Origin: a virus
IMG/VR virus record: IMGVR_UViG_3300042934_000712
Coordinates: 1-37,798 of that record
Direction: 5' to 3' (one strand)
Length of the DNA: 37,798 nucleotides
Shown here: one piece after another, positions 1-37,798 of the stretch
Layout of the letters: the number at the start of each line of letters is the position of its first letter
How positions within the stretch are numbered: position 1 is the stretch's first letter
Position numbers and translations under genes: made by a program
The notes under the pieces: model-generated
Database searches by the model: none
What the model saw: only the letters and a program-made list of their open reading frames with translations
Told to the model about the DNA's origin: nothing

Positions 1-127
1 CGGCACGGCGGCTTCGGCCGTCAGACGGTCGTCACCCTGCACGTCTGGTCCCGCTACCAGGGCTACACGCAGGCGCTGCGGATCGGCGCCCGGGTGACCG
101 CGCTGCTGGACCACCAGCCGCTGACCC
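1..127. repeat. Terminal direct repeat, left copy (assembly overlap of a circular contig)
   Basis: Identical by eye to 37672-37798. It lies inside a CDS, so it is not a biological LTR. Confidence 0.9.
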
Positions 128-249
128 TGCCCGGCCTGGACTGGATCGCGACCCGGTTCGAGTTCTCCCAGACCCTCACCGACCCGGAACCTCCCGGGGA
201 CATCAGGCACCTGGTGCTGCGCTACCGGGTCGTCACCGAGCAGCACTGA
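1..249 (+). CDS. Tail terminator / tail completion protein (DUF3168-like), C-terminal part of the junction-spanning CDS
   Basis: Frame 1 is open from nt 1 to TGA at 247-249. It continues the ORF that starts at 37507. The joined product is about 137 aa and contains VYDYVPEDVTYPYIVIGE. It sits between the gp10-like gene and the major tail gene. Confidence 0.6.
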   Translation, partial: RHGGFGRQTVVTLHVWSRYQGYTQALRIGARVTALLDHQPLTLPGLDWIATRFEFSQTLTDPEPPGDIRHLVLRYRVVTEQH

Positions 250-266
250 CCCCCTCGTTCCCCTTC

Positions 267-297
267 GCCCCGACGCCGCCGGCCTCGGGGCTTTCTC
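267..297 (+). terminator. Stem-loop with T-rich tail upstream of the major tail gene
   Basis: GCCCCGA (267-273) pairs with TCGGGGC (285-291) and is followed by TTTCTC. Confidence 0.35.
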
Positions 298-319
298 ACG
301 TACAGAACAGGAGAAGCCC

Positions 320-748
320 ATGGCCGGAATGGATGGCTTCGGAGTCCAGCTTCAGCGCGGCGACGGCGCGGGCACCGAGGTGTTCACGAAGATCGCGGAC
401 GTCACGTCGCTGAACCCTCCCGGGCTCACGCGGGAGACGATCGACGTCACCTCCCACGACAGCGAGAACGGGTGGATGGAGTTCCTCGGCGGGCTCAAGG
501 ACCCGGGCGAGGTGTCCGCGGACATCAACTACCAGCCCTCGGAGCACGACCTGCTGGTGGCGGACTTCGACGACAAGACCCCCCGCAACTACAAGATCGT
601 GTTCCCGGACGACGACGTCGCCCCCACCACCTGGTCCTTCAAGGCGTTCATCACCGGCTTCGAGCCGGAGACGCCCTACGACGACAAGGCGTCCGCGTCC
701 CTGACCTTCAAGGTCACGGGCAAGCCCACCATCGGCGCGGGGGCGTGA
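320..748 (+). CDS. Major tail protein
   Basis: RBS acAGGAGaagccc precedes the ATG. The product is 142 aa with high GC3. The position is canonical, between the tail terminator and the G/GT chaperones. Confidence 0.75.
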   Translation: MAGMDGFGVQLQRGDGAGTEVFTKIADVTSLNPPGLTRETIDVTSHDSENGWMEFLGGLKDPGEVSADINYQPSEHDLLVADFDDKTPRNYKIVFPDDDVAPTTWSFKAFITGFEPETPYDDKASASLTFKVTGKPTIGAGA

Positions 749-752
749 TCGC

Positions 753-1154
753 GTGGCACTGCTGAGCAAGGACCAGATCGCCGCTGCGGACGACCGCACG
801 TGGGAGGACGTGGACGTGCCCGAGTGGGGCGGCACCGTCCGTCTCCTGGGCATGTCCGGCACCGAACGCAACGCCTACCAGGCGAGTCTGGTCGTGATGG
901 GCACCAACGGTCAGGCGCAGCGCCTGAACATGGCCGACCAGCTAGCGAAGCTGGTGGCGAAGTGCCTGGTCGACGAGGACTTCGAGCGGCTGTTCACCGA
1001 CAGGGAAGTCCGGGAGCTGGGGGCGAAGAACGGCGCTGTCCTGGAACGTCTCGGCCAGGTCGCGCAGCGTCTGTCCGGCCTCCGCAAGGAGGACGTGGAG
1101 GACGCCGAGGGAAAATCCGAGCCGACCCCGAACGACGCTTCTACTTCCGGCTAG
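753..1154 (+). CDS. Tail assembly chaperone (G-like, zero-frame product)
   Basis: 133-aa acidic protein directly upstream of the tape measure gene. It contains the slippery heptamer near its 3' end. Confidence 0.75.
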   Translation: MALLSKDQIAAADDRTWEDVDVPEWGGTVRLLGMSGTERNAYQASLVVMGTNGQAQRLNMADQLAKLVAKCLVDEDFERLFTDREVRELGAKNGAVLERLGQVAQRLSGLRKEDVEDAEGKSEPTPNDASTSG

Positions 1155-1483
1155 CCCTGGAGAAGCGGCTGTCCCTGGCCGAGCTGCTGCGCACGCACAC
1201 CTCGGCCGAGCTGACCGAGTGGATGGCCTACGAGCGGGTCACCGGCATTTTCGGCCCGGAGCGGCAGGACATCCTGCACGGCATCCAGACCGCCGTCATC
1301 GCCAACGCCAACCGCGCCAAGAACAGCCGCAAGGCCGAGCCGAAGGACTTCATCCCCACCTGGGACCAGGGCAAGCGCGGGCCGATGACCTGGCAGGACA
1401 TGCTCGCCGCGGCCAAGGCCTACAACCGCCGGATCAACGGCACCGACCACACGACCAAGGGAGGTGCCCGTGGCGACGCTTGA
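753..1483 (+). CDS. Tail assembly chaperone, -1 frameshift fusion product (GT-like; 753-1115 joined to 1115-1483)
   Basis: The -1 frame is open from the slippery site to TGA at 1481-1483. Its extension reads GKIRADPERRFYFRLALEKRLSLAELL... and ends just inside the tape measure start. Confidence 0.7.
1109..1115 (+). promoter_or_regulatory. -1 programmed ribosomal frameshift slippery heptamer G GGA AAA
   Basis: GGGAAAA lies in X XXY YYZ phase with the 753 frame (codons GGA 1110-1112 and AAA 1113-1115). Confidence 0.7.
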
Positions 1484-3431
1484 GGAACTGCTGGTCTCCA
1501 TCGGCATCAACACCGACGACCTGACGGCCGGCGCCGACGGGGCCGCGGACCAGGTGGAGTCGAGCCTGGGCGGCATCCAGACTGCCGCCGCGGGCGCCGC
1601 TGTCGGCGGCATGTTCATGGCCGGGCTCAACGCGGCGATGGACTTGCAGAACGTGGAGACCCGCCTCCAGAACCAGCTCGGTCTGACCGAGGAGGAGGCG
1701 GGCCGCGCAGGTGACGCGGCCGGGCGGGTGTACGCGGCCGGGTGGGGCGAGTCCATGCAGGAGGTCGGCGACTCTCTCGCGGCCGTGGCGCAAGCCATGG
1801 GCGGCGTGGGAGACCTGTCCGACTCCGAGATGGACGACCTCACCAAAAAGGCCATGATGCTGGCCGAGACGTTCGAGCTGGACGTCGCCGAGTCCGCGAA
1901 CGCCGCCGGGCAGATGATCAAACTGGGCATGGCCAAGGACGGCCAGGAAGCCTTCGACATCCTCACCGCGGCCGCGCAGGAGCTGCCCGCGGCGATGCGC
2001 GACGACATCCCCGCCGTCATCTCCGAGTACGGCAAGCACTTCGAGCGGATGGGCCTCGACGGCAAAGAGGCCTTCGGGATGCTGTCGCAGTACGTGCAGG
2101 CCGGCGGCCGCGACATCGACCAGGCCGCCGACGTCATCCACGAGTTCGCCCGCATCACCTCCGAGGACACCAAGGGCGCATCCGAAGCCTTCAAGGCCCT
2201 CGGTCTGGACTCGGGCCAGATGCTGTCGGACATCGGCAAGGGCGGCGACGACGCCCAGCAGGCCCTGGGTGCCACCCTGACAGCACTGCGCGGGGTGAAG
2301 GACCCGGCCAAGCAGGCCGCCCTCGGTGTCGCCCTGTTCGGCGACATGGCGGGCGAGGGCAACGACGCTCTGTGGGCGATGAACCCGGCGACCGCCGCCG
2401 CCGCGGGCGGCATGGACAACGTGGCCGGCGCCGCCGGCCGGGCCACCGCCTCCGCTGAGGCGTCGAAGTCGATCGACGCGATCTGGCGGACGATGGCTGT
2501 CACGCTGGGCGAGATGCTCCAGCCTGCGCTGGAGTTCCTAGCGGATTTCATGCAGAAGAACCCGGAGCTGGTGAAGCTGCTGGCCGGGGCGCTGCTGGCG
2601 CTGGGCGTGGCGATCGGCCTGGCCGTGATCGCTCAGTGGGCGTGGAACGCGTCGCTGTGGGCGTTCCCCGGCACGTGGATCATCGCTGGGATCCTCGCCC
2701 TGATCGTGATCGTGTTCCTGATCGTCGCCTACTGGGACGAGATCAAGGCCGCCACCGGCGCGGCCTGGGACTGGATCAAGGGCAAGCTGTCGGGCGTCTG
2801 GAACTGGATCAAGTCGGTCGTCTCGTCGACCTGGGACTGGGTGTCGTCGCGGACGTCGGAAGCTTGGTCGTGGATCCGGGGCAAGGTCGCCGCCGGAGTC
2901 TCCGCTGTTCAGAGCGTCATCGACACCCTGCGGTCCATCCCGGGGAAGGTCGCCGGATTCTTCGGCAAGATCGTCTCCTATGTGGCCGGGCTGCCGGGCC
3001 GGATCTCCAGCGCGGCGTCGGGCATGTGGAACGGCCTGCTGTCCGGCTTCAAAGGCGTCATCAACCAGATCATCGGCGGCTGGAACAACATGTCGTTCAC
3101 CATCGGTGGCGGCAGCTTCATGGGCGTCGACATCCCGTCGGTCACCCTGTCCACCCCGAACATCCCGTACCTGGCACAGGGCGGTGTCACGACCGGCCCG
3201 ACCTTCGCGATGATCGGTGAAGGCCGCGAGCAGGAAGCCGTCCTCCCGCTGTCGAAGCTGGACGGCATGCTGCGCTCCGTCGCCGGGGCAGTCCGCGGCA
3301 CGAGCGGCAGCCAGGACGTGAACCTGCGCGTAGAGGTCGCCGGGCCCCGCGAATTCAAGACCCTCATCCGCAGCGTGGTCGCCACCGGCAGCCGCGGCGG
3401 CGACGTTCAGGGCTTCTTCGGTACCGACTAG
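1470..3431 (+). CDS. Tape measure protein
   Basis: About 654 aa. SD aaGGGAGG at 1457-1464 precedes GTG at 1470 (alternative GTG at 1464). It has an Ala/Gly-rich helical N-terminal part, central TM segments, 11-aa Trp repeats, and a C-terminal NIPYLAQGG...AMIGEGREQEAVLPL motif typical of tape measure proteins. Confidence 0.9.
   Translation: MATLEELLVSIGINTDDLTAGADGAADQVESSLGGIQTAAAGAAVGGMFMAGLNAAMDLQNVETRLQNQLGLTEEEAGRAGDAAGRVYAAGWGESMQEVGDSLAAVAQAMGGVGDLSDSEMDDLTKKAMMLAETFELDVAESANAAGQMIKLGMAKDGQEAFDILTAAAQELPAAMRDDIPAVISEYGKHFERMGLDGKEAFGMLSQYVQAGGRDIDQAADVIHEFARITSEDTKGASEAFKALGLDSGQMLSDIGKGGDDAQQALGATLTALRGVKDPAKQAALGVALFGDMAGEGNDALWAMNPATAAAAGGMDNVAGAAGRATASAEASKSIDAIWRTMAVTLGEMLQPALEFLADFMQKNPELVKLLAGALLALGVAIGLAVIAQWAWNASLWAFPGTWIIAGILALIVIVFLIVAYWDEIKAATGAAWDWIKGKLSGVWNWIKSVVSSTWDWVSSRTSEAWSWIRGKVAAGVSAVQSVIDTLRSIPGKVAGFFGKIVSYVAGLPGRISSAASGMWNGLLSGFKGVINQIIGGWNNMSFTIGGGSFMGVDIPSVTLSTPNIPYLAQGGVTTGPTFAMIGEGREQEAVLPLSKLDGMLRSVAGAVRGTSGSQDVNLRVEVAGPREFKTLIRSVVATGSRGGDVQGFFGTD
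2766..2897 (+). repeat. Four tandem 33-nt (11-aa) W-x-W repeats inside the tape measure gene
   Basis: TGGGACTGG, TGGAACTGG, TGGGACTGG and TGGTCGTGG start at 2766, 2799, 2832 and 2865. The protein reads AWDWIKGKLSG VWNWIKSVVSS TWDWVSSRTSE AWSWIRGKVAA. Confidence 0.85.
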
Positions 3432-3443
3432 GAGGGGGTCCCT

Positions 3444-6400
3444 GTGGAGTTCCCGCTGGACATGCTCACCGAGCTGCACATCGACGGTGTCTGGACGAAG
3501 GTCCCCACCTACGAGCGGGACCCGGTAGAGCTGGACTACGGGCGCCCGGAGCGGGGCACCAAGTCCGACCCGGGCAGCCTGTCCATCACGGTCAACAACC
3601 GGGACGGCAGGTTCAGCCCCCGCAATCCGATGTCCCCGTTCTTCGGGAAGATCGGCCGCAACACCAGGATCAGGCTGTCCCTGCCCGGCGAGGAGTCCTA
3701 CCTCCAGCTGGACGGCGACCCGGCGTCCTACGCCTCGACGCCGGACGCGGCCGCGCTCGACCTCACCATGGACATGGACCTGCGCTGGGAGGGCGAAACC
3801 GACTGGTACGCCACCGCCGGCCAGGTCCTCATCGGCAAGTGGTCGACCGAGCCGGGCCAGCGTTCCTACGCCATGCGCCTGGAACGCGGCCTGCTGTTCT
3901 TCCACGGCGGCCGCGACGGCACCTCCGGTCCCTTCCAGGGCTGGCCTCTGCCCGCGCTGCCCCGCCGGGCGGCGGTCCGGGTCACCCTCACCGGAGGTCT
4001 CACCGTCCGCCACTACTGGGCCGAGACGATGGACGGGCCGTGGACGCAGATCGGAACCGACATCGCCCTGCCCTCCCCGCTGACCACCGGTCTGTTCGTG
4101 GGTACGGCGCCGCTCCTGATCGCGCCGAGCCAGTACGACTCCGACCCGACCCGCCCGCCGGTGGCCGGCCGTGTCTACCGGGCCGAGGTCCGCGGCGCCG
4201 GCGGCGCCGTGGTGGCCTCGCCCGACTTCCGGGGCCAGGCGGCCGGTGCGGCCGGGTTCACCGATGCGGCAGGCCGGGCCTGGACGCTGACGGGCACGGC
4301 TGAGATCCGTGACCGGACCGATCTGTTCCTCGGTGAGGTGTCCGAGTGGCCGCAGCAGTGGACGCCGGACGGCGCCGACGCCTGGGTGCCGCTGGTGGCG
4401 TCGGGCATCCTGCGCCGCCTGGGCCAGGGCAAGAAGGCCATCCAGTCCAGCCTCCGGCGCAGGATCCCCGCATTCTCGCCGATGGCGTACTGGCCGATGG
4501 AGGAAGGCGACCAGGCGACCAAGGCGTACTCGCCGGTGCCCGGCGTGGACCCGCTGTCGTTCAGTCAGGCGGACTGGGCTGCCGACACGTCGCTGGTGTC
4601 GTCGGCTCCGCTGCCGACGGTCGGCTCGCAGTCCGGGAACCTGTCGCACCTGTCCGGCATGGTCCGCAACTACTCGTGGGCGAGCCTGCCGTCCTGGTCC
4701 GCGATCTGGATGTACCGGATGCCGCAGACTCCCGCGGCCAGACAGACGTTCATGCTGGTGCGCAGCACGGGCACGGTCCGCGACTGGTACCTCCAGTTCG
4801 GCCCGGCCGACTCCCGCATCCTCGGCCTCGACCGCGAGGGCGTCACGGTCGTGGACCGCACCATCGCCACGAGCACCGACATCTTCGGCAAGTGGATCAA
4901 GGCCCGGTTCGCTGTCGAGCAGCAGGGCAGCAACGTCCGCTACGTCATGGTCTGGTCCGACATCGACGGCGACGCGGGCTTCTACGAGAACACCGTGGCG
5001 GGCGTCACCGGCCGGCCGACCGGTGTCTTCTCCCCGCCCGGCGGCTACTCCGCGAACCTCCAGGGCCTGGCCATCGGCCACATCTCGGTGTGGGACAGCT
5101 TCGACCCCGACGGCTACGACAACGCCATCAACGGCTGGTCCGGAGAGACGGCGTGGGAGCGGATGCGGCGCCTGTCGGACGAGGAGGGCCTGACGCTCTC
5201 CACCATCCCCGCCAACCAGGATCCGGAACTGGTCGGATCGCAGACCACCGAAACGCTGCTGACGCTTCTCCAGGAGGCCGCGGACGCCGACGGCGGTCTG
5301 CTGCTGGAGGACCGGCGCCGTCTCGGCCTGGTGTTCCGCCAGCGGGCCAGCATGTACAGCCAGACCCCGCGCCTGGTCCTGTCCTACGACCAGGCGCCGG
5401 GCCTGGCCGCACCCCTGGAACCGGTCGACGACGACACCGCCATCCGCAACGACCGCACGGTCCAGCGGGACGGCGGCGGGCAGGCGCGGGCGGTCCTTGA
5501 GGAAGGCCCGCTGTCGGTGCAGGACCCGCCCGACGGGATCGGCCGGTACGACGACAGCGTCACCCTGTCGCTCCACAGCGACGACCAGACGGCACCGATC
5601 GCGTACTGGCGGCTGGCTCTGGGCACGGTCGACGGGCCCCGCTACCCCACCGTCAAGATCCTGCTGCACAAGGCGCCCCACCTCATCCCGCAAATCATGG
5701 CGCTGACCGAGGGCGACCTGGTCCGCATCACCGACCTGCCGGCCTACGTCGGCTTCGGCGACGCCGACCTGATCGTGGACGGCGTGCACCACGAAATGCG
5801 GATGATGCAGTGGACCGTGACGCTGAACTGCCAGCCTGCCGAACCGTGGCAGGCCGGCATCGCCGACGACGCGGTCCTCGGCAAGGTCGACACCGACGGC
5901 TCCCAGCTGGCGGCCGCGGCTGACGCCACTGCCACCGTGCTGCCAGTGAACGTCACCGCGGGCCCGTGGTGGATCTCGGGCGGCACCGTCCTCAACGCCA
6001 ACCCCCTGCTCACGAACGACCTGACCGGGTGGACCCCGTTCGGGACCGTCCTGGAGCGGGTGGAGGCGCCCACACCGAAGCCGTTCCCCGGCACGTGGTG
6101 CATGCGCCTCACTCCGAACGGAGTCGAGCAGTACCCGAACGCGGGCTCCGGCCAGATCCCGGTCACGCCTGGCCAGCAGTACACGCTGTCCGGGTGGCTG
6201 CGCTGCGCCACGGCCCGCTCGGTCGCCCTCAACCTGAACTGGTTCGACGCCACCGCCGGCTACCTGTCGACGGCGGCGAACGACAAGCCCGTCCTCGCCG
6301 GGGCGTGGACCTGGTTCGAGATGACCGTCACGGCACCCGCGGGGGCGGCCGCCGCGAACATCGCTCCCACCGTCGCGGACTTCCCTCCGGCCACCGATGT

Positions 6401-7226
6401 GCTGTGGGCCCACCAGCTCACACTGCGCCCGCAGGCGGACGGGGCGAAGCTCGCCGACTTCCCCTTCGACGTCCGCGCGGGCGGGGAGGTGATGACCGTC
6501 AACGCGGTCACGCCGACCGTCCTGGACCGCTTCACGCGGACCGTGACGGGCGGCTGGGGGGCGACCGAGACGGGCCAGGCCTGGACGGCGACCGGCGGGA
6601 CGGCCGCCAACTTCGAAGTCGGGGGAGGCGTCGCGCAGCACACCATCAGCACGAAGAACGTCTACCGGGTCACCTCGCTGAACACGCTGGCCCTCCCGGA
6701 CGCGGACCTGATGGTGTCCGTGCGGCTGCCCTCCACCCCGACCGGGGACGGCATCTACACGTACTACCTGGCCCGCGCCAACGTCGCCGCCGACACGTTC
6801 TACTTCGCCCGCCTGTACTTCCAGACCAACGGGTGGGTGGAACTGACCCTCCGCAAGCGGACACCGACGGAGACGGCTCTGGCGACGTCTCCGGTCCAGC
6901 TGGCGTTCGTGGCGGGCAAGTCCTACCGGCTGCGGTTCCAGGTCCTCGGCAGCACGCTCCGCGCGAAGGCGTGGGCCCTGCCGGACATCGAACCCGCGGA
7001 CTGGCACGTGACGGCCACCGACACCAGCATCACGGCCGCGGGCGCGGTCGGGTTGCGGACCTACGCGTCCACGTCGAACACGAACACCTCGCCGCTGGTG
7101 GTGTTCGACGACCTGAAGGTCGGCCCGCAGCGCTTCGGTGTGACCCGGTCCGTCAACGGCGTCGTCAAAGCCCAGAGCGCCGCCACGGAAGTGCGGATGG
7201 CCAACCCGATGCGCATACCCCTGTAG
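3444..7226 (+). CDS. Large minor tail protein (Dit-like N-terminus fused to LamG-like and carbohydrate-binding-like domains; probable adsorption device)
   Basis: RBS ctAGGAGGgggtccct precedes the GTG. The product is 1260 aa and follows the tape measure gene directly. The N-terminal ~90 aa resemble siphovirus distal tail proteins. The 6000-6360 region (NPLLTNDLTGWTPFG...QYTLSGWLR...WFEMTVTAP) resembles CBM4_9-type jelly-roll modules. Confidence 0.7.
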   Translation: MEFPLDMLTELHIDGVWTKVPTYERDPVELDYGRPERGTKSDPGSLSITVNNRDGRFSPRNPMSPFFGKIGRNTRIRLSLPGEESYLQLDGDPASYASTPDAAALDLTMDMDLRWEGETDWYATAGQVLIGKWSTEPGQRSYAMRLERGLLFFHGGRDGTSGPFQGWPLPALPRRAAVRVTLTGGLTVRHYWAETMDGPWTQIGTDIALPSPLTTGLFVGTAPLLIAPSQYDSDPTRPPVAGRVYRAEVRGAGGAVVASPDFRGQAAGAAGFTDAAGRAWTLTGTAEIRDRTDLFLGEVSEWPQQWTPDGADAWVPLVASGILRRLGQGKKAIQSSLRRRIPAFSPMAYWPMEEGDQATKAYSPVPGVDPLSFSQADWAADTSLVSSAPLPTVGSQSGNLSHLSGMVRNYSWASLPSWSAIWMYRMPQTPAARQTFMLVRSTGTVRDWYLQFGPADSRILGLDREGVTVVDRTIATSTDIFGKWIKARFAVEQQGSNVRYVMVWSDIDGDAGFYENTVAGVTGRPTGVFSPPGGYSANLQGLAIGHISVWDSFDPDGYDNAINGWSGETAWERMRRLSDEEGLTLSTIPANQDPELVGSQTTETLLTLLQEAADADGGLLLEDRRRLGLVFRQRASMYSQTPRLVLSYDQAPGLAAPLEPVDDDTAIRNDRTVQRDGGGQARAVLEEGPLSVQDPPDGIGRYDDSVTLSLHSDDQTAPIAYWRLALGTVDGPRYPTVKILLHKAPHLIPQIMALTEGDLVRITDLPAYVGFGDADLIVDGVHHEMRMMQWTVTLNCQPAEPWQAGIADDAVLGKVDTDGSQLAAAADATATVLPVNVTAGPWWISGGTVLNANPLLTNDLTGWTPFGTVLERVEAPTPKPFPGTWCMRLTPNGVEQYPNAGSGQIPVTPGQQYTLSGWLRCATARSVALNLNWFDATAGYLSTAANDKPVLAGAWTWFEMTVTAPAGAAAANIAPTVADFPPATDVLWAHQLTLRPQADGAKLADFPFDVRAGGEVMTVNAVTPTVLDRFTRTVTGGWGATETGQAWTATGGTAANFEVGGGVAQHTISTKNVYRVTSLNTLALPDADLMVSVRLPSTPTGDGIYTYYLARANVAADTFYFARLYFQTNGWVELTLRKRTPTETALATSPVQLAFVAGKSYRLRFQVLGSTLRAKAWALPDIEPADWHVTATDTSITAAGAVGLRTYASTSNTNTSPLVVFDDLKVGPQRFGVTRSVNGVVKAQSAATEVRMANPMRIPL

Positions 7227-7235
7227 GAGGATCCC

Positions 7236-7733: not shown

Positions 7734-7775
7734 CCCTGGCCCTTCCCGCCAATCCGTACCCGGCAGGAGGCTGTG

Positions 7776-8084: not shown

Positions 8085-8103
8085 GCGGCGCAAGGAACGA
8101 CAG

Positions 8104-8612: not shown

Positions 8613-8613
8613 C

Positions 8614-8650: not shown

Positions 8651-8665
8651 TCGTCGTCTGCGGGG

Positions 8666-29877: not shown

Positions 29878-31513
29878 CGCCGGGCCCGAGTTCGTCGTCG
29901 ACTTCCCTACGCTCTGGGTTGTCCCGGACTGGATCGAAGCGCACTGCCCTGTCCCGGACGGCTTCCGTGCCGGTGAGGACATGGAGCTGTACCCGTGGCA
30001 GCTGTGGTGCACGGTCAACCACTACCGGATCAAGCCCGGGGTGGAGCCGTACCGGGCTGACGGGCAGCGTCGCCTGGCGACAGCGTTCCACTACCGCCGC
30101 TCGCAGGTCGTGGCCCCGCAGAAGACGGGTAAGGGCCCGTGGTCGGCGACGATCGTGCTCGCTGAGGCGGCCGGTCCGGTCGTTTTCGACGGCTGGGCTC
30201 GAGGCGGCGAGCGGTACCGGTGCTCTGACCACGGCTGCGGATGCGGCTGGTGGTACGCCTACGAGCCGGGCGAGCCGATGGGCGTTCCGTGGCCCACGCC
30301 GCTGATTCAGCTGATGGCCACCTCTGAGGCGCAGGTCGACAACGTCTACCGGCCGCTTCGGCAGATGGTGAAGCGCGGTCCGTTGTCCGAGCTGATGAGG
30401 GTGGGCGAGGAGTTCACCCGGGTCGGTGACGACGGGAAGATCGAGACGGTGACGTCGTCGGCTCTGTCCCGGCTGGGCAACCCGATCATCTTCGCCATGC
30501 AGGATGAGTCTGGCCTGTACACCGCGGCAAACAAGCTGCGGAAGGCGGGCGAGACCCAGCGTCGTGGCGCGGCCGGTATGGGCGGCCGGTCGATGGAGAC
30601 GACGAACGGCTGGGACCCGTCCGAGGGCAGCGTCGCACAGACGACGTCCGAGTCCCGGGCCCGGGACATCTTCAAGTACCACCCGCAGGCGCCGAAGACC
30701 CTGTCTTACGCCAACAAGCGGGACCGCCGGAAGATCCACGCGATCGTGTACGCCGGTTCGTCGCACGTCGACCTGGACGGGATCGAGGCCGAGGCCGCCG
30801 AGATCATGGAGAAGGACCCGGCGCAGGCCGAACGGTTCTTCGGCAACCGGTGCGTGTCGGGGTCGGCGACGTGGCTGGACCTGGCGAAGTGGGCGGCGAA
30901 GGCTGCCCCGCGGCGGGTGCGTCCCATGACGCGGATCGTGCTGGGCTTCGACGGTTCCGAGGTCGACGACTGGACCGCGATCCGCGCGGAGACGATGGAC
31001 GGCTACCAGTTCACGCCCGTCTACGGGCCGCTCGACGAGCCGACGATCTGGAACCCGGCGGACTACGGCGGCCAGGTGCCGGCGGCAGAGGTCCACGCGG
31101 CCATGGGCCAGCTCATGGCCCGCTACGACGTGGTTCGGCTGTACGCGGATCCGCCGTACTGGGAGACCGAGATCGACCAGTGGGTGGACCTGTACGGCGA
31201 GGAGCGCGTCATCCGCTGGTACACGCGCCGCATCGTGCAGATGCACTCAGCCTGCGAGCGGCTGAAGACGGACGTGGTGCGGCCGGCCACCGGCACGGTG
31301 AAGTTCTCGCACGACGGCTGTCCGATCACGGCGGACCACATCGCCAACACGCGCGCGGCCGCGCGCCCGATGGACCGCTACGTGCTGAAGAAGGCCAGCC
31401 CGACCCAGAAGATCGACGCCACGATCCCGAGCATCCTCGCCCACGAGGCGCTGGGAGACGTCATCGCGGCCGGCCTGGCCGAGAAGCAGGTCTCTTACTA
31501 CTACGGCGCTTGA
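29861..31513 (+). CDS. terL: Terminase large subunit
   Basis: 550 aa. It has the Walker A-like segment VVAPQKTGKGPWSA, the Walker B-like segment IIFAMQDESG, and a C-terminal nuclease-sized domain. It is followed by the portal gene. Confidence 0.85.
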   Translation: MAKGPDAGPEFVVDFPTLWVVPDWIEAHCPVPDGFRAGEDMELYPWQLWCTVNHYRIKPGVEPYRADGQRRLATAFHYRRSQVVAPQKTGKGPWSATIVLAEAAGPVVFDGWARGGERYRCSDHGCGCGWWYAYEPGEPMGVPWPTPLIQLMATSEAQVDNVYRPLRQMVKRGPLSELMRVGEEFTRVGDDGKIETVTSSALSRLGNPIIFAMQDESGLYTAANKLRKAGETQRRGAAGMGGRSMETTNGWDPSEGSVAQTTSESRARDIFKYHPQAPKTLSYANKRDRRKIHAIVYAGSSHVDLDGIEAEAAEIMEKDPAQAERFFGNRCVSGSATWLDLAKWAAKAAPRRVRPMTRIVLGFDGSEVDDWTAIRAETMDGYQFTPVYGPLDEPTIWNPADYGGQVPAAEVHAAMGQLMARYDVVRLYADPPYWETEIDQWVDLYGEERVIRWYTRRIVQMHSACERLKTDVVRPATGTVKFSHDGCPITADHIANTRAAARPMDRYVLKKASPTQKIDATIPSILAHEALGDVIAAGLAEKQVSYYYGA

Positions 31514-31524
31514 AAGGGGGCCCG

Positions 31525-33018
31525 ATGGCGACGCTTGAGCAGGCCCTCAACCTGGTGCAGCTCCTGGAAGCGGAGCTGATCCACCGCAGCCCGGCCATCA
31601 TCCGGCACAACGACTACTACCGCGGCAAGCACCCGCTGAAGTACGCGTCCGACGAGTTCGCGAAGTTCCACGGCGACCGCTACAGGGACTTCAGCGACAA
31701 CTGGACGCAGGTCGTGGCCGACTCCCCGGTGGAGCGGATGACCGTAACCGGCTTCCTGGCCTCCGGGGAGACTGACGCGGACCGGGAACTGTGGAAGGTG
31801 TGGCAGGTCAACGGCCTGGACGCCGACAGCCAGCTCGGTTTCCTCGGCTCCGTCTCCAACGCGCGGTCGTTCATCCTGGTGTGGGGCGACCCCGACGACC
31901 CAGACATGCCGGTCGTCACCTTCGAGGACGCCTCGCAGTGCGTCATCGCCTACGAGCCCGGCTCGCGCAGGAAGCGGCGTGCCGCGCTGAAGCGGTTCCA
32001 GGACGGCGACATGGACTGCGCAACGCTGTTCCTGGCAGACGAGGTATGGAAGTTCGCCCGGCCCCGCCTGCTCCAGGACAACGCGCAGTCCCCGCAGATG
32101 ACGGACGTCGACGAGGAGCTGAAGCGGTGGAAGCCGCGGGAGATCCCGACCGAGCCGAACCCGCAGCCCAACCCCATGGGCGTCGTGCCGATGGTGGAGC
32201 TGCCGAACAAGCCGGTCCTCGTCGGTGATCCGATCAGCGACATCGGCGGCGTCATCGCCATGCAGGACGCCATCAACCTGCTGTGGGCGCAGCTGTTCAC
32301 GGCCGCCGACTACGCGTCGTTCCCGCAGCGGGTCATCCTCGGTGCCGACCGGCCGGTGATCCCGAAGCTCAACGACAAGGGCGAGGTCGTCGGCACGCAG
32401 CCGGTGGACCTGGAGAAGTTCGCCGTCGACCGCGTGATGATGTTCAACGGCAAGGATGCGCGGATCGCCGAGTGGCAGGCCGCCAACCTCGCCATGTACA
32501 CCGGCCTGATCGAGGTCGGAGTCGGTCACCTCGCTGCCCAGACCCGCACCCCGCAGCACTACCTGATCGGGCGCATGGCCAACCTGGCCGAGGGCGCCCT
32601 GCTCGCCGCCGAGACGGGCTTGGTGAAGCGGACCGAGGAGAAGCAGACCTGGTCCGGGCAGGGCCTGCGGGAGATGGCCCGCCTGATCGCCCTGGCCCGC
32701 GGCGAGTACGAGAAGGCCGAGGCGATGCGCGCAGGCCGCGTGCTGTGGAAGGACGCGGAATCCCGCAGCCACGCCCAGCTCGCCGACGCGCTGCTGAAGC
32801 TGAAGCAGCTGGGCTTTCCCTTCAAGTGGCTGGCCCTGCGCTACGGCCTGACCCCCACCGAAGTCGCCGACGTCATGGTGATGCGGATGGAGGAACTGGA
32901 GGCCGACCCGGTCACGGAACTGACCCGGCAGCTTGGTGGCGTCCCTGACGGCTCGGGCAACGTCGTCCCGGTACCCGAGGAGGACGACGAGCCCGCAGAC
33001 GCGGAGGCGGCGGCGTGA
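31525..33018 (+). CDS. Portal protein (SPP1 gp6-like)
   Basis: ATG at 31525 follows AAAGGGGG. The product is 497 aa and begins MATLEQALNLVQLLEAEL...YYRGKHPL. The ORF extension back to 30850 overlaps terL and is rejected. Confidence 0.85.
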   Translation: MATLEQALNLVQLLEAELIHRSPAIIRHNDYYRGKHPLKYASDEFAKFHGDRYRDFSDNWTQVVADSPVERMTVTGFLASGETDADRELWKVWQVNGLDADSQLGFLGSVSNARSFILVWGDPDDPDMPVVTFEDASQCVIAYEPGSRRKRRAALKRFQDGDMDCATLFLADEVWKFARPRLLQDNAQSPQMTDVDEELKRWKPREIPTEPNPQPNPMGVVPMVELPNKPVLVGDPISDIGGVIAMQDAINLLWAQLFTAADYASFPQRVILGADRPVIPKLNDKGEVVGTQPVDLEKFAVDRVMMFNGKDARIAEWQAANLAMYTGLIEVGVGHLAAQTRTPQHYLIGRMANLAEGALLAAETGLVKRTEEKQTWSGQGLREMARLIALARGEYEKAEAMRAGRVLWKDAESRSHAQLADALLKLKQLGFPFKWLALRYGLTPTEVADVMVMRMEELEADPVTELTRQLGGVPDGSGNVVPVPEEDDEPADAEAAA

Positions 33019-33983
33019 GCCCCTCTCCGGAGGCGGTGGCGCACATGGAGGCCCGCCGACGGCTGGCCCTGGCCACCGCGCTCGCCACCCACCGCATGTG
33101 GCGCCAGGTGGACCGGGACAACCTCCACCAGTCCTGGACCGCCAACGTCGGCAACGTTCTCGCCCTGGTCGTGGCCTCCCAGATGAGGGCCGCGGAGATG
33201 ACCAGTCCCTGGCTGAACCGGCTGCTGGGAGTGGAGAACGAGGACCGGCCGGACGCGAATCGGATCGTCCCGGCCGCGTTCGCCGGCGTGGACGGCGCGG
33301 GCCGCCCGCTTGGTGGCGTACTGATGGCGCCGATCTGGACTGCGCTGCGGATGGTGACGGCCGGGCGTCCGATCGTGCAGGCGATGCTTGCCGGGCAGTC
33401 GCTGCTGGACGCGATCGTGCAGACGGCCGTCGCGGACATCGGCCGGGCCGCGGACTCCGTCGGCATGACGGCGCGGCCAGCGGTGACCGGCTACATCCGC
33501 GTGGTGGAGGGCGGCGCCTGCTCGCGGTGCGTCGTCCTTGCCGGTGCCGAGTACCACACTGACAAGGCGTTCCTGCGGCATCCGCGCTGCAAGTGCGGCA
33601 TGGAGCCCGTCACCCGCGACCACGCCCCGGACCCGCCGTCGCCGAAGCAGCTGGTGGCGCAGATGTCCGAGGAGCAGCGGCGGAAGACGTTCGGTGAGGC
33701 CGGCGCGAAGGCCCTTGCCGAGGGCGCCGATGTGGGCCAGCTGGTGAACGCCCGCCGCGGCATGCAGTCCGCGGTCGTCTACGGCCGGAAGTTGCAGATC
33801 ACCAGCGAGGGCACGACGCGCAGGGGCTTCGCCGGCAGTCGCCTCCAGGACTTTGAGAAGGTCCGCGGCCAGCGCTACCGCGTCTCGCGCAAGCCCCGCC
33901 TGATGCCGGAGGAAATCTTCCGCGTCGCCGACAACCGCGAGCACGCCGTCCGGCTGCTCCACCAGTACGGCTACATCGCCTGA
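33015..33983 (+). CDS. MuF-like minor capsid / head morphogenesis protein
   Basis: 322 aa, directly after the portal gene. It has the Cys-rich motif GGACSRCVVLAG...HPRCKCG, which is common in actinophage MuF-like proteins. Confidence 0.65.
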   Translation: MSPSPEAVAHMEARRRLALATALATHRMWRQVDRDNLHQSWTANVGNVLALVVASQMRAAEMTSPWLNRLLGVENEDRPDANRIVPAAFAGVDGAGRPLGGVLMAPIWTALRMVTAGRPIVQAMLAGQSLLDAIVQTAVADIGRAADSVGMTARPAVTGYIRVVEGGACSRCVVLAGAEYHTDKAFLRHPRCKCGMEPVTRDHAPDPPSPKQLVAQMSEEQRRKTFGEAGAKALAEGADVGQLVNARRGMQSAVVYGRKLQITSEGTTRRGFAGSRLQDFEKVRGQRYRVSRKPRLMPEEIFRVADNREHAVRLLHQYGYIA

Positions 33984-34032
33984 TACCCGCCCGCGCGCAA
34001 CGCGCAGGCCCGCACCCGCAACGGGAGTACTC

Positions 34033-34713
34033 ATGACCACGCCCACCCCTGCCGCGCCCGCAGCCGACGACGCCCTGGACCCGGCGGCCGAGCCCGTGGA
34101 GCCGGACGACGCCCTCGACCCGACCGACGTGGACGACGGCGACGCCGATCCCGAGGGCGCCGACCAGCTCGGTGACCCGGGCAAGAAGGCCCTGGACACC
34201 ATGAAGGGCAAGCTCAAGGCGGAGCGCGAGAAGCGCCGCGCCCTCGAGGCCCAGCTCGCCGAACGCGACAAGCCGGCCGACGGCGACCAGCCGGACCAGG
34301 GCGCCCTGGTCCGGCAGGCCGAAGCGACGGCGCTGGCTCGCGTCAACGAACGCCTGGTGAAGGCGGAGGTGAAGGCCGCCGCCGCTGGCAAGCTCGCCGA
34401 CCCCGGCGACGCCCACCGGTTCCTGGACATGTCCCAGTTCGAGGTCGACGACGACGGCAACGTCGATGCCGACGAGGTCGCCGACGCGATCGACGACCTG
34501 CTCAAGTCCAAGCCCTACCTGGCCGCGCAAGGCGGCAGCACCAAGCCGCGGTTCCAAGGGACCGCAGATTCCGGCGCCCGCAAGGGGAATGCCCGGCCCT
34601 CTCAGCTCACCGAGGCGGACGTCAAGCGTCTGTCGGCGGCGGGCAAGCATGCCGAGATCGTCAAGGCCCAGAACGAGGGCCGCCTCGACGACTACCTCGG
34701 CCAGTCCCGGTAA
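34033..34713 (+). CDS. Scaffolding protein
   Basis: 226 aa, acidic, helical and coiled-coil. It lies immediately upstream of the major capsid gene. Confidence 0.7.
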   Translation: MTTPTPAAPAADDALDPAAEPVEPDDALDPTDVDDGDADPEGADQLGDPGKKALDTMKGKLKAEREKRRALEAQLAERDKPADGDQPDQGALVRQAEATALARVNERLVKAEVKAAAAGKLADPGDAHRFLDMSQFEVDDDGNVDADEVADAIDDLLKSKPYLAAQGGSTKPRFQGTADSGARKGNARPSQLTEADVKRLSAAGKHAEIVKAQNEGRLDDYLGQSR

Positions 34714-34734
34714 CCCCCTTCAAGGAGAACTCTC

Positions 34735-35586
34735 ATGGCCATCAGTGCCTTCAAGCCGGAAGTCTGGAACGCCAACCTCCTGGTCGCGCTCGAGACGTCG
34801 CACGTGTACGCCGCCGCAGGCGTCGTCAACCGCGACTACGAGGGCGACATCGCCAACTACGGCGACACCGTCCACATCACCTCGCTGGCCGACCCGACGA
34901 TCGGCACCTACACCCCGCACACCGACATCACCATCGAGGACGTCGACGACGTCGACTCCACCCTCCTCATCGACCAGGCCAAGTACTTCGCCTTCGAGGT
35001 CGACGACGTGGAGAAGCGCCAGGCCCGCAACGGGGGCGCCGTCCTCACCGAGCAGGCCCGCCGCGCCGCGTACAAGCTGCGGGACACCGCCGACAAGTAC
35101 GTGGCCGGCCTGATGGCTGCGGGTGTCGACGCGGGCAACCTCGTCGCGGAGGCGACCCTGACCGCAGCCGCTGAGGCCTACGACCTGCTGGTCGACCTCG
35201 GCACGCTGCTGGACGAGTCCGACGTCCCCGACGATGGCCGCTGGGCGGTCGTCACGCCCGCCTTCTACGGCCTGCTGAAGAAGGACCAGCGGTTCGTCGG
35301 CACGGGCGACGCCCAGGCGGCGATGACCCGCGTCAACGGCATCGTCGGCGAGGCCGCCGGCCTGTCCATCCGCAAGTCCAACAACGCCCCCGACGGCCCC
35401 GGCGCGGGCGCGGGCAAGCTGATCATCGCCGGGTACGGCGGCGCGGTCACCTACGCCGAGCAGATCAACAAGACCGAGGCGACCCGCAAGGAGAAGGGCT
35501 TCGCGGACATCGTGAAGGGCCTCCACCTGTACGGATCCAAGGTCGTCCGTCCCACCGGTCTGGCCGCGGCGGACGTGATCATCTGA
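34735..35586 (+). CDS. Major capsid protein
   Basis: AAGGAGA RBS precedes the ATG. The product is 283 aa. It sits after the scaffold gene and has very high GC3. Confidence 0.8.
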   Translation: MAISAFKPEVWNANLLVALETSHVYAAAGVVNRDYEGDIANYGDTVHITSLADPTIGTYTPHTDITIEDVDDVDSTLLIDQAKYFAFEVDDVEKRQARNGGAVLTEQARRAAYKLRDTADKYVAGLMAAGVDAGNLVAEATLTAAAEAYDLLVDLGTLLDESDVPDDGRWAVVTPAFYGLLKKDQRFVGTGDAQAAMTRVNGIVGEAAGLSIRKSNNAPDGPGAGAGKLIIAGYGGAVTYAEQINKTEATRKEKGFADIVKGLHLYGSKVVRPTGLAAADVII

Positions 35587-35960
35587 TGGGCCGCGAGCTG
35601 AAGGACGGCGAGCAGGTCCGTCTCCGTGGCTCGGGCGGCGCCATCTTCCTGGTGACCGTCGGACAGCCGTTCACCCGGGAGCTCATCGAGGCCCGCCTCG
35701 CGCGGGGCGAGTGGAGCTGGCCGGGCACCGACCCGAAGCCGAAGCAGGAGGCGAAGCCCAAGCCCGTCACCACGACGGAGCCGAAGGCCGCCCCGGAGCC
35801 GGAGAAGACTTCGGCCCCTGCGGCCGCGGACGACCCGGAGCGGCCGGCGGTCAACGCGCCGAAGGCCGAGTGGGTCGTCTACGTGGCTCGCACGCAGCAC
35901 ATGTCCCGCGAGGACGCGGCGAACTACACCAAGGCTGACCTGATCGACATGGTCAGCTGA
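35586..35960 (+). CDS. Hypothetical head-associated protein with a Pro/Lys/Glu-rich linker
   Basis: 124 aa. TGATG overlap with the capsid stop. The linker reads PKPKQEAKPKPVTTTEPKAAPEPEK, followed by a short helical C-terminal domain. Confidence 0.5.
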   Translation: MGRELKDGEQVRLRGSGGAIFLVTVGQPFTRELIEARLARGEWSWPGTDPKPKQEAKPKPVTTTEPKAAPEPEKTSAPAAADDPERPAVNAPKAEWVVYVARTQHMSREDAANYTKADLIDMVS

Positions 35961-35976
35961 CTGAGAGGGGGCTGCC

Positions 35977-36570
35977 GTGGCACTGGCACCGCTCGCAACG
36001 ACGGCCGATCTCGAAGCCCGCGGCCTGACCATCGACCCGTCGGAGGCGACGGTCGTGGGCGTCTACCTGGGTGTCGCATCGGCGGCGGTGCGGGAGGCGG
36101 CCGGTTCGGCCATCTCCCGCACCACGTCGACCCTCACCCTGGAAGGCCCGACCGGGCAGTGGCTGACGCTGCCCAGTCCGCCAATCGTGTCTGTGGCGTC
36201 CGTCTCCATCGACGGGCGCCCGGTCACCGACTGGCGGCTTCGCTCAGAACGCCTGTGGCGGGCGGCCGGCTGGTCCGGCTGCGAACCGTCCGAGGTGGAA
36301 GTCACCCAGACTCACGGCCTGGTCGACGTCCCCGAGGACATCGTGGACCTGGTGTGCCGGATGACGGCGGCCGCGCTGGTTGCCTACCGGTCCGAGGACG
36401 CAGGCGAGGGCCTGGCCGCGGGCAAGGAAGTCACCTCCGAGCGGCTCGGAGACTGGGCAGTCACCTACGGATCCGACGGCCGGATCAGCGAGATGGAGCT
36501 CACCCAGTTCTGGCGGGACCGGCTCGCGGCCCGCTTCGGGTCCAGCGTCACCGCGCTGAGGTCCCGGTGA
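35977..36570 (+). CDS. Head-tail connector/adaptor protein (putative)
   Basis: 197 aa. The call rests on its position after the capsid genes and before the head-closure gene. Confidence 0.5.
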   Translation: MALAPLATTADLEARGLTIDPSEATVVGVYLGVASAAVREAAGSAISRTTSTLTLEGPTGQWLTLPSPPIVSVASVSIDGRPVTDWRLRSERLWRAAGWSGCEPSEVEVTQTHGLVDVPEDIVDLVCRMTAAALVAYRSEDAGEGLAAGKEVTSERLGDWAVTYGSDGRISEMELTQFWRDRLAARFGSSVTALRSR

Positions 36571-36917
36571 GGGGCATCGGCCGGACGCTGAACCGGTCCC
36601 TGACGGTGTGGCGGGAGACGACCGTGGACGACGGCGCGGGCGGCCAGGAGACGATGCTGGCGCAGGTGACCACGGTGCGCGCGAAGGTCGACCAGCCGTC
36701 CCCGACGGAACGCCTGATGGCGCAGCAGTCCAGCTCCAACCACTCCCACAACATCTACCTGCAACCGCGGGCGAACGTCCGCCGCGGAGACGAGCTGCGC
36801 GGCACGGACGCGCTGGGCAACGCGCAAAAGTTCCGCGTGCTCTCGGTCGTGCAGCCCTCCACGCCCGTCTACTCGAAGGCGTTTGTGGAGCTCACCCAGT
36901 CCCAGCCTGGAGGCTGA
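36567..36917 (+). CDS. Head closure / head-tail joining protein (SPP1 gp16-like)
   Basis: GTGA overlap at 36567. The product is 116 aa. LTVWRETTVDDGAGGQ...VRAKVDQPS...NIYLQP...RGDEL..., which is typical of head-tail adaptor family proteins. Confidence 0.6.
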   Translation: MRGIGRTLNRSLTVWRETTVDDGAGGQETMLAQVTTVRAKVDQPSPTERLMAQQSSSNHSHNIYLQPRANVRRGDELRGTDALGNAQKFRVLSVVQPSTPVYSKAFVELTQSQPGG

Positions 36918-36919
36918 CC

Positions 36920-37072
36920 GTGGACAAGCCGTACATCGGCGCTGAGGCGCACGAGTGCAAGCAGCGCGCCGAGGATCCGAAGCTGCCCACCGACGAACGG
37001 CTGGTGTGGGCGCAGCTCGCGGCGGCTGCCGAGCTGGCGGCCATCCGCAAGCTGCTGTCCAAGCGGCGCTGA
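36920..37072 (+). CDS. Hypothetical small protein (50 aa)
   Basis: GTG at 36920 with CTGGAGG 6 nt upstream. Confidence 0.4.
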   Translation: MDKPYIGAEAHECKQRAEDPKLPTDERLVWAQLAAAAELAAIRKLLSKRR

Positions 37073-37084
37073 GGGGAGGCCCCT

Positions 37085-37510
37085 GTGGCACGACGACGAC
37101 GCCGCGGTGGCGGGCGCAGGCACCCGCGTGCGGGCGCGCGAGGCAGCGGCATCACCGTCACGATCGAGGGCCTGCCCGAACTGAGGCAGCGCCTGGAGGA
37201 ACTGCCGACCGAGGTCAAGGCCGCCTGCTTCCGCGCGCTGAAGGAGTCCGGCGGCGCGGTCATCGACGGCGTCAAAGGCCGCGTGAAGATCGACACCCGG
37301 AACCTGCACGGCTCGGTGAAAGCCCGGTACGAGAACAACCGGGTCCGCGCTGAGATCGGCTGGTGGGACCGGGACGACCGGTACGCCGTCTGGCAGGAGT
37401 TCGGCACCAGCAAGATGCCCGCGAACCCCTCCCTGGGCCCCGCCCTGGAAGAGGAAAAGCAGCACCTGCCCGACCGGATCAAACGGGAGATCGGGAGGAT
37501 CGTGCAGTGA
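37085..37510 (+). CDS. HK97 gp10-like neck/tail component
   Basis: 141 aa. The features LPELRQRLEELP...VKARYENNRVRAEIGW...YAVWQEFGTSKMPANP match the gp10-family pattern. Confidence 0.65.
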   Translation: MARRRRRGGGRRHPRAGARGSGITVTIEGLPELRQRLEELPTEVKAACFRALKESGGAVIDGVKGRVKIDTRNLHGSVKARYENNRVRAEIGWWDRDDRYAVWQEFGTSKMPANPSLGPALEEEKQHLPDRIKREIGRIVQ

Positions 37511-37798
37511 CAGCCCCTGCCCCGATGCTGCCGGTGCAGTCCGCCGTCTACGCCCGGCTGAGGGACGACGCCACGCTCGACGGCATGGTCACCGGCGTCT
37601 ACGACTACGTGCCGGAAGACGTCACCTATCCGTACATCGTGATCGGAGAGGCGACCGAGACGCCCGACAATCGGCACGGCGGCTTCGGCCGTCAGACGGT
37701 CGTCACCCTGCACGTCTGGTCCCGCTACCAGGGCTACACGCAGGCGCTGCGGATCGGCGCCCGGGTGACCGCGCTGCTGGACCACCAGCCGCTGACCC
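37507..37798 (+). CDS. Tail terminator / tail completion protein, N-terminal part (continues at nt 1 across the circular junction)
   Basis: GTGA overlap start at 37507. The frame is open to the window end, and the last 127 nt duplicate nt 1-127. Confidence 0.6.
   Translation, partial: MTAPAPMLPVQSAVYARLRDDATLDGMVTGVYDYVPEDVTYPYIVIGEATETPDNRHGGFGRQTVVTLHVWSRYQGYTQALRIGARVTALLDHQPLT
37672..37798. repeat. Terminal direct repeat, right copy (assembly overlap of a circular contig)
   Basis: Identical by eye to 1-127. Confidence 0.9.

Follow-up and report, generated by a model that had tools for sequence, protein, structure and literature searches.

A probable Streptomyces plasmid-phage of the pFP4/pFP3 lineage that joins a siphovirus virion module to a TraB-type transfer module

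We analyzed the IMG/VR virus record IMGVR_UViG_3300042934_000712, positions 1 to 37,798 (this whole stretch of 37,798 nucleotides (nt) is called the window below), which a preliminary description had taken for one closed replicon combining siphovirus genes with a Streptomyces-type module for transfer of double-stranded DNA (dsDNA). Our results make it quite likely that the window represents, as one complete circle, the genome of a plasmid-phage that belongs to the pFP4/pFP3 lineage of Streptomyces, i.e., a temperate siphovirus that would be kept as a low-copy plasmid and would be self-transmissible through a TraB-type system. The identities of the modules and of the cis-elements were assigned by sequence and homology. 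Genes were called by third-position GC, with a G+C content of the window of ~70%. Among the related contigs, L003 is a Logan contig, L006 comes from S. scabiei, L012 from S. tendae, and L016 from S. prasinopilosus.

The two ends of the window share a short identical segment:

1..127 (no strand): circularisation overlap of the assembler type, identical to 37672-37798

This terminal identity gives a unit length of 37,671 bp. The open reading frame (ORF) of a 131-amino acid (aa) tail-completion protein (37525..249) runs uninterrupted across the end junction, and two independent isolate assemblies, contigs L012 and L016, each viewed only within the 10-kb flanks of its match, are collinear with the window over the same junction. 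The overlap, the intact gene spanning the junction, and this collinearity bear out the claim of a closed replicon. Furthermore, the same module junctions occur in independent assemblies, indicating that the virion and transfer modules belong to one replicon rather than to a chimera. GC content is even along the window (65-74%).

Virion genes occupy ~17 kb of the 37.7-kb circle. They lie on the + strand, starting at 28.75 kb, crossing the junction, and ending at 7.73 kb, as follows (E, expectation value; percentages are identities):

28753..29235 (+): HNH endonuclease adjoining the terminase, a cos-type packaging accessory (phrog_144, E 9e-22; 54% to phiSASD1, 87% to L016)
29386..29877 (+): small terminase subunit, TerS (Pfam Terminase_7, weak; 43% to phiSASD1 gp21)
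29861..31513 (+): large terminase subunit, TerL (phrog_19179, E 2e-155; 59% to phiSASD1 and Dubu TerL)
31513..33018 (+): portal protein, SPP1 Gp6-like, start approximate (PF05133, E 1.6e-18; 65% to the phiSASD1 portal)
33015..33983 (+): VG15/MuF-like minor head protein (PF25310, E 5e-8; 42% to pFP4, 43% to phiSASD1 gp24)
34033..34713 (+): scaffolding protein (PF06810)
34735..35586 (+): major capsid protein (phrog_267, E 4.5e-64; 46-48% to the phiSASD1 major capsid protein)
35586..37510 (+): head-tail connector genes, namely connector, adaptor, head completion (36608-37072), and HK97-gp10-like (37085-37510)
37525..37798, continuing at 128-249 of the circle (window 1-249) (+): tail completion protein, gp17-like (PF11367, E 4e-25)
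320..748 (+): major tail (tube) protein (PF16461, E 3e-16)
753..1483 (+): tail assembly chaperone G (753-1154) and G-T frameshift product
1464..3431 (+): tape measure protein (PF10145, E 1e-21)
3444..7226 (+): distal tail protein of 1260 aa with a C-terminal phosphodiesterase (PhoD-like) domain (phrog_5313, phrog_24476)
7236..7733 (+): receptor-binding protein (RBP) head, 165 aa, final virion gene (AlphaFold2 model, pLDDT 89.8; Foldseek)

Pfam and PHROGs thus uphold the canonical siphovirus order that had been proposed, from the HNH gene through the RBP gene. The gene previously called MuF does encode a minor head protein, but its match is to the VG15 family (PF25310). Thirteen virion proteins are 42-65% identical to, and collinear with, those of phage phiSASD1. 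Within the chaperone gene, a slippery heptamer, G_GGA_AAA at 1109-1115, is correctly phased to lead into a -1 frame ORF that ends at 1483, and siblings of this gene carry Phage_TAC_1 and Phage_tail_T domains. We conclude that the heptamer is a predicted, conserved G/G-T -1 frameshift site.

For the final virion gene, the Foldseek matches of the model were Dettilon gp208 (prob 1.0), PSA gp15, and the TP901-1 RBP. Because the model has a tailspike/RBP-head fold, the gene is predicted to encode the RBP. We had also considered this 165-aa protein as a cryptic lysin, an idea ruled out by the same fold. The distal tail protein is 45% identical to phiSASD1 gp38 and 34-54% identical to the PhoD-like tail proteins of pFP3 and L006. 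Its PhoD-like domain (the C-terminal ~250 aa) is shared at 34-54% with the tails of three elements that have otherwise unrelated virion modules, namely pFP3, L006, and L009; the domain may serve in host recognition by degrading wall polymers, and may pass from one tail to another.

Relatives of TerL at 74-92% identity are very frequent in Streptomyces chromosomes and on 34-42-kb contigs, and sibling virion modules were found in isolates and prophages. A megablast search of both window halves against the phage collection gave a sole match, 94 nt of the tape measure gene. Since the replicon (37.7 kb) is about the size of phiSASD1 (37.1 kb), the entire element, transfer genes included, should fit into the head.

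On the - strand, a putative transfer operon (8666-16367) faces the virion module, with a regulatory gene diverging from its upstream end:

8666..9175 (-): 169-aa protein with a single predicted transmembrane segment (orf169), 3' of traB in all relatives
9176..9353 (-): clt-like array of 8 CCTGAC/GTCAGG repeats with a central hairpin (GGCCTGAC...GTCAGGCC)
9354..11438 (-): TraB, FtsK/SpoIIIE-type dsDNA translocase of 694 aa with a predicted C-terminal winged helix (PF01580, NF041214)
11435..12103 (-): TraA-like transfer protein, translationally coupled to traB (NF041213, E 5e-11; PF28214 on homologues)
12105..14772 (-): four ORFs, Spd-type candidates, given in the next four lines
first ORF upstream of the TraA-like gene, within 12105..14772 (-): 90-aa protein, Spd-type candidate
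12394-13932 (-): DUF2637 membrane/coiled-coil protein, Spd-type candidate (PF10935, E 2.5e-35)
14030-14494 (-): 154-aa protein with three predicted transmembrane segments, Spd-type candidate
14491-14772 (-): 93-aa protein, Spd-type candidate
14945-15874 (-): WhiB-domain protein of 309 aa, the WhiB domain being C-terminal (PF02467, E 1.5e-11)
15972-16367 (-): 131-aa protein, first operon gene, conserved in pFP3, pFP4, L006, and L008
16368..16566: divergent control region, the operon-side ~130 bp of which are conserved in relatives
16567..17304, longest ORF from 16498 (+): KorA-type GntR/HutC repressor (PF00392, PF07702)

The ATPase at 9354-11438 had been described as a Streptomyces plasmid TraB, and this identification holds. 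Plasmid_TraB (NF041214) was the best NCBIfam model (E 1.9e-136, residues 34-688), with no FtsK model listed, and the protein is 81-82% identical to the TraB proteins of pFP3 and pFP4. PF01580 (FtsK_SpoIIIE) matched with E 1e-9, and a Walker A motif, GVTGAGKS, lies at residue 295. The similarity searches did not place the ATPase with chromosomal FtsK or with phage FtsK-like proteins: the P. aeruginosa FtsK motor in the PDB matched with E 3e-4 over ~100 residues only, and phage FtsK-like proteins are at most 27% identical to it. A simple hydropathy scan (Kyte-Doolittle) flagged residues 70-88 in the N-terminus, and residues 40-145 contain several hydrophobic stretches rich in Ala and Gly. In the AlphaFold2 model, the last 120 aa form an H-H-H-beta-beta core (pLDDT >90), for which the top Foldseek matches were nearly all winged-helix proteins (prob 0.8-0.99, with weak E values of 0.025-0.15). 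From this model, a C-terminal winged-helix domain is predicted to be present. Previous work has shown that pSVH1 TraB reads clt repeats through its winged-helix domain (PMC3583192; PMC4447253).

Eight further ORFs accompany traB, three of them with predicted transmembrane segments, in agreement with the five or more small flanking proteins counted before. Among these, orf169 is 48-89% identical at the aa level in pFP3, pFP4, and L003-L011. The DUF2637 protein is 43% identical to SCP2.27c, from the transfer region of SCP2, and has homologues in 357 Streptomycetaceae plasmids; in the literature we found no link equating DUF2637 with Spd. A WhiB-domain protein within the transfer operon is kept in pFP3, pFP4, L006, L008, and L011. 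The Tra, SpdA, SpdB, and KilB proteins of pIJ101 and TraA of SCP2 had no detectable match among the window genes and were dropped as candidate homologues. As the preliminary description had stated, neither a relaxase nor a type IV secretion system (T4SS) is seen: Pfam and NCBIfam gave no match to a relaxase, a coupling protein, or mating-pair formation (MPF) genes in any called ORF or in the unassigned regions when these were scanned in six frames.

Directly downstream of traB, the repeat array reported earlier is indeed present. The motif CCTGAC occurs 8 times in the 178 bp of 9176-9353 versus a window average of 1.2/kb, and any other 178-bp span holds at most 2 copies. The spacer, the repeats, and the central hairpin are positionally kept in 10 related elements, with a mean column identity of 74%. 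We conclude that 9176-9353 is a conserved, putative clt-like element near traB. Its CCTGAC motif is unlike the published clt and TRS motifs of the classical Streptomyces plasmids and of AICEs (integrative and conjugative elements of actinomycetes).

The protein encoded divergently from the operon is 55% identical to pIJ101 KorA (240 aa, E 1e-80), and its likely start is the ATG at 16567, which is preceded by a GGAGGA ribosome-binding site. By sequence, therefore, this GntR/UTRA regulator is a true KorA homologue. The divergent layout and the homology to KorA agree with the control of the operon that had been ascribed to this gene; control itself is suggested by that layout and homology. Nucleotide homology to pFP3 stops at 16474, which suggests that the regulator and its proximal promoter (window 16474-17304) were swapped in, and the korA-proximal ~60 bp resemble pIJ101. 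Two TAGTGC boxes, TAGTGCACTA (16483) and TAGTGCGTTA (16521), adjoin korA and are 38 bp apart. The idea that TAGTGCACTA serves as an operator was set aside for lack of statistical support.

To place the element among its relatives, blastn comparisons gave a sharp border:

7716..7749: recombination breakpoint between an L012-like virion module and an L003-like backbone (blastn)

Positions 34894-37798 plus 1-7749 match L012 (87-91% nt identity), and 7716-12684 match L003 (89% nt identity). The two homologies overlap by ~34 bp only, at the 3' end of the RBP gene. As judged from these alignments, the element is a sharp recombinant of which both parental types are identifiable. Its backbone is ~80% identical at the nt level, over 5.4 kb, to pFP4 (NC_017833.1, 40.9 kb) and pFP3 (NC_023067.1, 34.1 kb), and at least 15 window proteins are syntenic with those of pFP4/pFP3 at 31-88% aa identity.

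These two plasmids have the same plasmid-half architecture and gene order as the window. They also carry genes for phage terminase, portal, capsid, and tape measure proteins, for ParA, for an integrase, and for replication, and in each a GntR gene diverges from a WhiB-DUF2637-FtsK/SpoIIIE operon. Compared with the window, aa identities are 81-82% for TraB, 69-70% for the DUF2637 protein, 69-71% for the WhiB-like protein, and 57-58% for the TraA-like protein; a homologous clt-like spacer is present, and ~26-28% of the window aligns at the nt level. However, the virions differ. That of pFP3 is of an HK97 protease plus capsid type, and that of pFP4 has a P27 TerS and a beta-helix spike, with the portal, VG15, and scaffold proteins alone being 35-42% identical to those of the window. 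The holin cassette of the window is absent from both.

At least six further relatives share the layout of the window. Relatives that have traB beside tail genes are L003, whose TraB is 91% identical to that of the window; L006, which is pFP3-like; L009; and L010, a 37.7-kb ENA contig. L009 is Streptomyces sp. AHA2, in which a 713,823-bp contig carries a TraB of 80% identity, a portal gene, and a PhoD-like tail segment; since it lies inside so large a contig, it is probably an integrated form. In L004/L005, L008, and L011 (TraB ~81%), a Peptidase_M23/SLT protein of ~1,900 aa stands where the plasmid-phages have tail genes, and no virion genes were visible within the fetched stretches. Given these siblings, the same backbone seems to occur with and without a phage module. 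L016 (GCA_001419695.1, LIRG01000014.1, 38,297 bp), from a cultured S. prasinopilosus, is 77-85% identical at the nt level to the window over the partition, packaging, head, and tail regions. In length, its remaining 14.1 kb equal the part of the window in which the RBP, lysis, transfer, korA, and replication genes lie, and L016 is probably TraB-bearing. A scan of IMG/VR with TraB patterns (exact 8-mers) found none, and because the patterns were exact 8-mers, the scan of genome contigs found only 2 loci.

The combination of virion and transfer genes had been called unusual, its novelty being left unjudged; plasmid-phages of the pFP4 kind and pZL12 are already in the literature. A passage in PMC4170104 that cites 2012 work states that plasmid-phages of the pFP4 kind conjugate as episomes and make infective particles. 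For pZL12/phiZL12, replication, transfer, and the plasmid and lytic cycles have been characterised, according to passages in PMC3583192 and PMC4487206 that cite Zhong et al. 2010. We conclude that the combination of a phage with TraB is real here but already known from experimentally studied precedents. The proposal that the element may spread both as virions and by hyphal dsDNA conjugation is supported by the predicted module identities together with the precedent relayed in PMC4170104.

Other known systems share parts of this organization. pZL12/phage ZL12 (NC_013420), the first Streptomyces plasmid-phage, represents the same concept, being a circular plasmid that replicates, transfers, and goes through a full phage cycle; however, it is 90 kb in size and of an unrelated lineage, and its FtsK-like protein is 22.6% identical over 65% of the window TraB. 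The packaging, head, and tail genes of phiSASD1 (Sasdunavirus), L012, L013, and L016 are collinear with those of the window, with virion aa identities of 42-65% to phiSASD1 and 74-98% to L012. phiSASD1 has its own DNA polymerase, primase, and endolysin and is without TraB, ParA, and KorA. Only 12.6% of the window aligns to phiSASD1 (66-75% nt identity); the virion module alone is related, and the element falls outside Sasdunavirus. The plasmids pIJ101, pSVH1/pSN22, and SCP2 and the AICEs pSAM2 and SLP1 have the same kil-kor logic, with a divergent GntR gene, an spd...traB operon, and clt, for which the window has Spd-type candidates and a clt-like array. These classical Streptomyces plasmids and AICEs likewise transfer dsDNA without a relaxase or T4SS, but carry no virion genes. 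With AICEs, which are integrated in tRNA genes, 9-24 kb in size, and made up of int/xis/rep/traB/kor without virion genes, the window shares the integrase, a xis-like gene, traB, and korA; it is, however, a 37.7-kb circle with ~17 kb of virion genes and no tRNA found. P1, N15, and the SSU5-group phage-plasmids are also temperate phages kept as plasmids with partition genes, and are described as virion-borne.

The remaining genes serve replication, partition, integration, and lysis:

17271..20547 (+): HTH_17 protein, 436-aa protein, and DnaB-type replicative helicase (19132-20547)
22202..24219 (-): partition locus, ParA (23140-24219) and an SCP2.04c-like partner (22202-23350) (PF13614, E 1.5e-33)
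24799..26583: integration module, consisting of a conserved 113-aa gene (-), an integrase, and a Xis-like gene
25184-26284 (+): tyrosine integrase (PF00589; 88% to the pFP4 integrase)
26320-26583 (+): HTH_17/MerR Xis-like gene, directly after the integrase
7773..8612 (+): lysis-type cassette of a 103-aa protein, DUF7620 (8059-8286), and holin_2 (8283-8612)
8614..8650: GC-rich hairpin with 16-nt arms (inverted repeat I2, 94% complementary), lying where the holin gene and orf169 converge

DnaB is 60% identical to that of pFP3. The 436-aa protein (17760-19070, +), encoded between the HTH gene and DnaB, had no Pfam, NCBIfam, or PDB match and has only short patches (36-91 aa, 54-58%) in common with relatives. 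It is a candidate replication initiator, located in the lowest-GC part of the element (65-68%). ParA is 75% identical at the aa level to SCP2 ParA, and its partner is 55% identical to SCP2.04c. ParA is only 31% identical to the ParA of pFP3/pFP4 because the window has an SCP2-type par locus, another exchanged plasmid module. An Rfam search found no family, and no tRNA or tRNA-like attP fragment was found near the integrase. PDB sequence searches with four window proteins, unlabelled or large, gave nothing useful. The hairpin at 8614-8650 is likely, by its sequence, a bidirectional terminator that insulates the two modules, and it was missed by a simple terminator scan because it has no T-run.

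A mechanism can be proposed by analogy with pSVH1, from which the roles of TraB, clt, TraR, and Spd in transfer are known (PMC4447253), and with pIJ101. ParA with its partner and DnaB would provide plasmid maintenance, and the integrase would make an integrated state possible. KorA would repress the potentially toxic transfer operon, as in kil-kor systems. Derepression in hyphae touching a recipient would yield membrane-bound TraB hexamers, which would recognise the CCTGAC repeats by means of their C-terminal winged helix and drive the circle, double-stranded and unprocessed, into the recipient hypha, where the DUF2637 protein and the small membrane proteins of Spd type would spread it through the compartments. 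By a separate route, induction would switch on the late operon, HNH, TerS, and TerL would cut and package the unit-length genome, and the siphovirus particles would use the distal tail protein and the RBP to infect. As to origin, an L012-like temperate phage and an L003/pFP-like conjugative backbone may recently have recombined exactly where the RBP gene ends, and a pIJ101-type korA stands in place of the usual GntR gene of the backbone.

Several observations weigh against a self-transmissible, productive plasmid-phage. The NCBIfam score of TraB is 456 bits, below the 800-bit equivalog cut-off, so that its membership is at family level rather than equivalog level, and that of the TraA-like protein is 43 bits, below the 80-bit cut-off. 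The TAGTGC boxes are not significant, with 2 matches in the window versus 3.0 expected by chance. The korA product is 26-27% identical to the GntR proteins of pFP3, pFP4, and SCP2, a low value that for pFP3/pFP4 follows from the pIJ101-type KorA of the window; korA is foreign to the backbone, and its control of the operon is a prediction. Dual transfer function is likewise predicted from genes and homology. Finally, the element comes from a metagenome contig, so that a Streptomyces host is presumed, and the circle may be a plasmid or an excised prophage.

The lysis genes add to these objections. The cassette at 7773-8612 is homologous to Hiyaa gp27-gp29, which directly precede the endolysin gp30, but no endolysin or peptidoglycan-hydrolase domain was detected in the window, whether by tblastn with 5 lysins, by searching the ORFs against Pfam and PHROGs, or by scanning all unassigned regions in six frames with Pfam. 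The slots in which an endolysin would be expected (7733-7773, after 8612, and 27278-28243) are empty. Relatives keep the gene at three different positions: L012 and L013 have an Amidase_2 gene immediately after the RBP homologue, phage Hiyaa has its endolysin immediately after the homologue of the three-gene holin cassette, and L016 has a 485-aa Amidase_2 protein upstream of HNH, with L010 likewise carrying an endolysin at the equivalent position. Since no endolysin was recognised, lytic release is not assured. However, pFP3 and pFP4 have no recognisable lysin either, and so its absence from the window is no proof of a defect. Conceivably, though we think it unlikely, the lineage of the window and L003 lost the canonical endolysin and kept the virion module and holin, in which case either an unrecognised lysis route would operate or TraB conjugation would be the main mode, with virions conditional, on a backbone that swaps modules. 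If true, the pFP-type TraB backbone, on which at least 5 virion-module types were seen, would be a platform that repeatedly exchanges whole virion modules and regulators at module borders.

Taken further, the lack of a peptidoglycan hydrolase, which L012, L013, L016, L010, and Hiyaa all have, could mean that the element is a conjugative plasmid whose phage module is deficient in lysis or non-productive in some other way, TraB being the sole effective route, and that it is on its way to becoming a plain plasmid. The siblings L004/L005, L008, and L011, with no virion genes in the fetched stretches, fit such a course, and P1-like phage-plasmids are documented to turn into plasmids (PMC10879196). 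Nevertheless, all virion genes are intact and follow the order of a functional phage, the -1 frameshift site is phased, and the holin cassette is kept. An unrecognised lysin may also be among the ~15 small ORFs without assignment, and pFP4 is equally without a recognisable lysin, yet its kind gives infective particles according to the passage in PMC4170104. We therefore regard a non-productive module as rather improbable.

More doubtful still is the idea that the phage uses TraB and Spd for distribution of its prophage through mycelium and spores and not for mating between strains. TraB and Spd do direct intramycelial spreading in pSVH1 (PMC4447253), and ParA with its partner speaks for selection for stable inheritance. 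However, in characterised plasmids the same TraB also carries out donor-to-recipient transfer (PMC4447253), plasmid-phages are reported in the cited part of PMC4170104 to conjugate, and the two roles are compatible rather than exclusive with a self-transmissible plasmid-phage. An assembly artefact, in which phage and plasmid contigs, or a prophage beside an AICE, were misjoined and circularised, is the least credible alternative and very improbable indeed. In its favor, the DNA comes from a metagenome contig, and an overlap of 127 bp is no more than an assembler signature; but L003 (89% nt identity) is collinear with the junction at 7.7-8.7 kb, L012 and L016 with that at the contig ends, and pFP3/pFP4, up to 16474, with that at 16.4 kb. 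The same module adjacency recurs in two finished plasmids and several independent assemblies, and GC is uniform throughout. On balance, a plasmid-phage of the pFP4/pFP3 lineage that may travel by both routes is the reading that we favor.

In phage-plasmid surveys, conjugation genes were sought by relaxase and MPF models only, and Streptomyces TraB elements are unmentioned. Large surveys thus overlook the Streptomyces examples because relaxase/T4SS genes alone were sought, and this silence suggests that the class is under-appreciated outside the Streptomyces field. To what was known, the window adds a recombinant that is clean and datable and for which both parental types are identified, one TraB backbone associated with several unrelated virion modules as well as with siblings that have none in the available stretch, and a candidate clt motif (CCTGAC). 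Cultured strains of S. prasinopilosus, S. tendae, and S. scabiei carry close relatives of its modules, on contigs LIRG01000014.1, CBDRHW010000057.1, and JARAWE010000060.1, respectively. Elements that move both as virions and by conjugation, of which Streptomyces examples have been known since 2010-2012, blur the division between phage and plasmid, and such dual movers could deliver a phage genome to hosts without the receptor for that phage.

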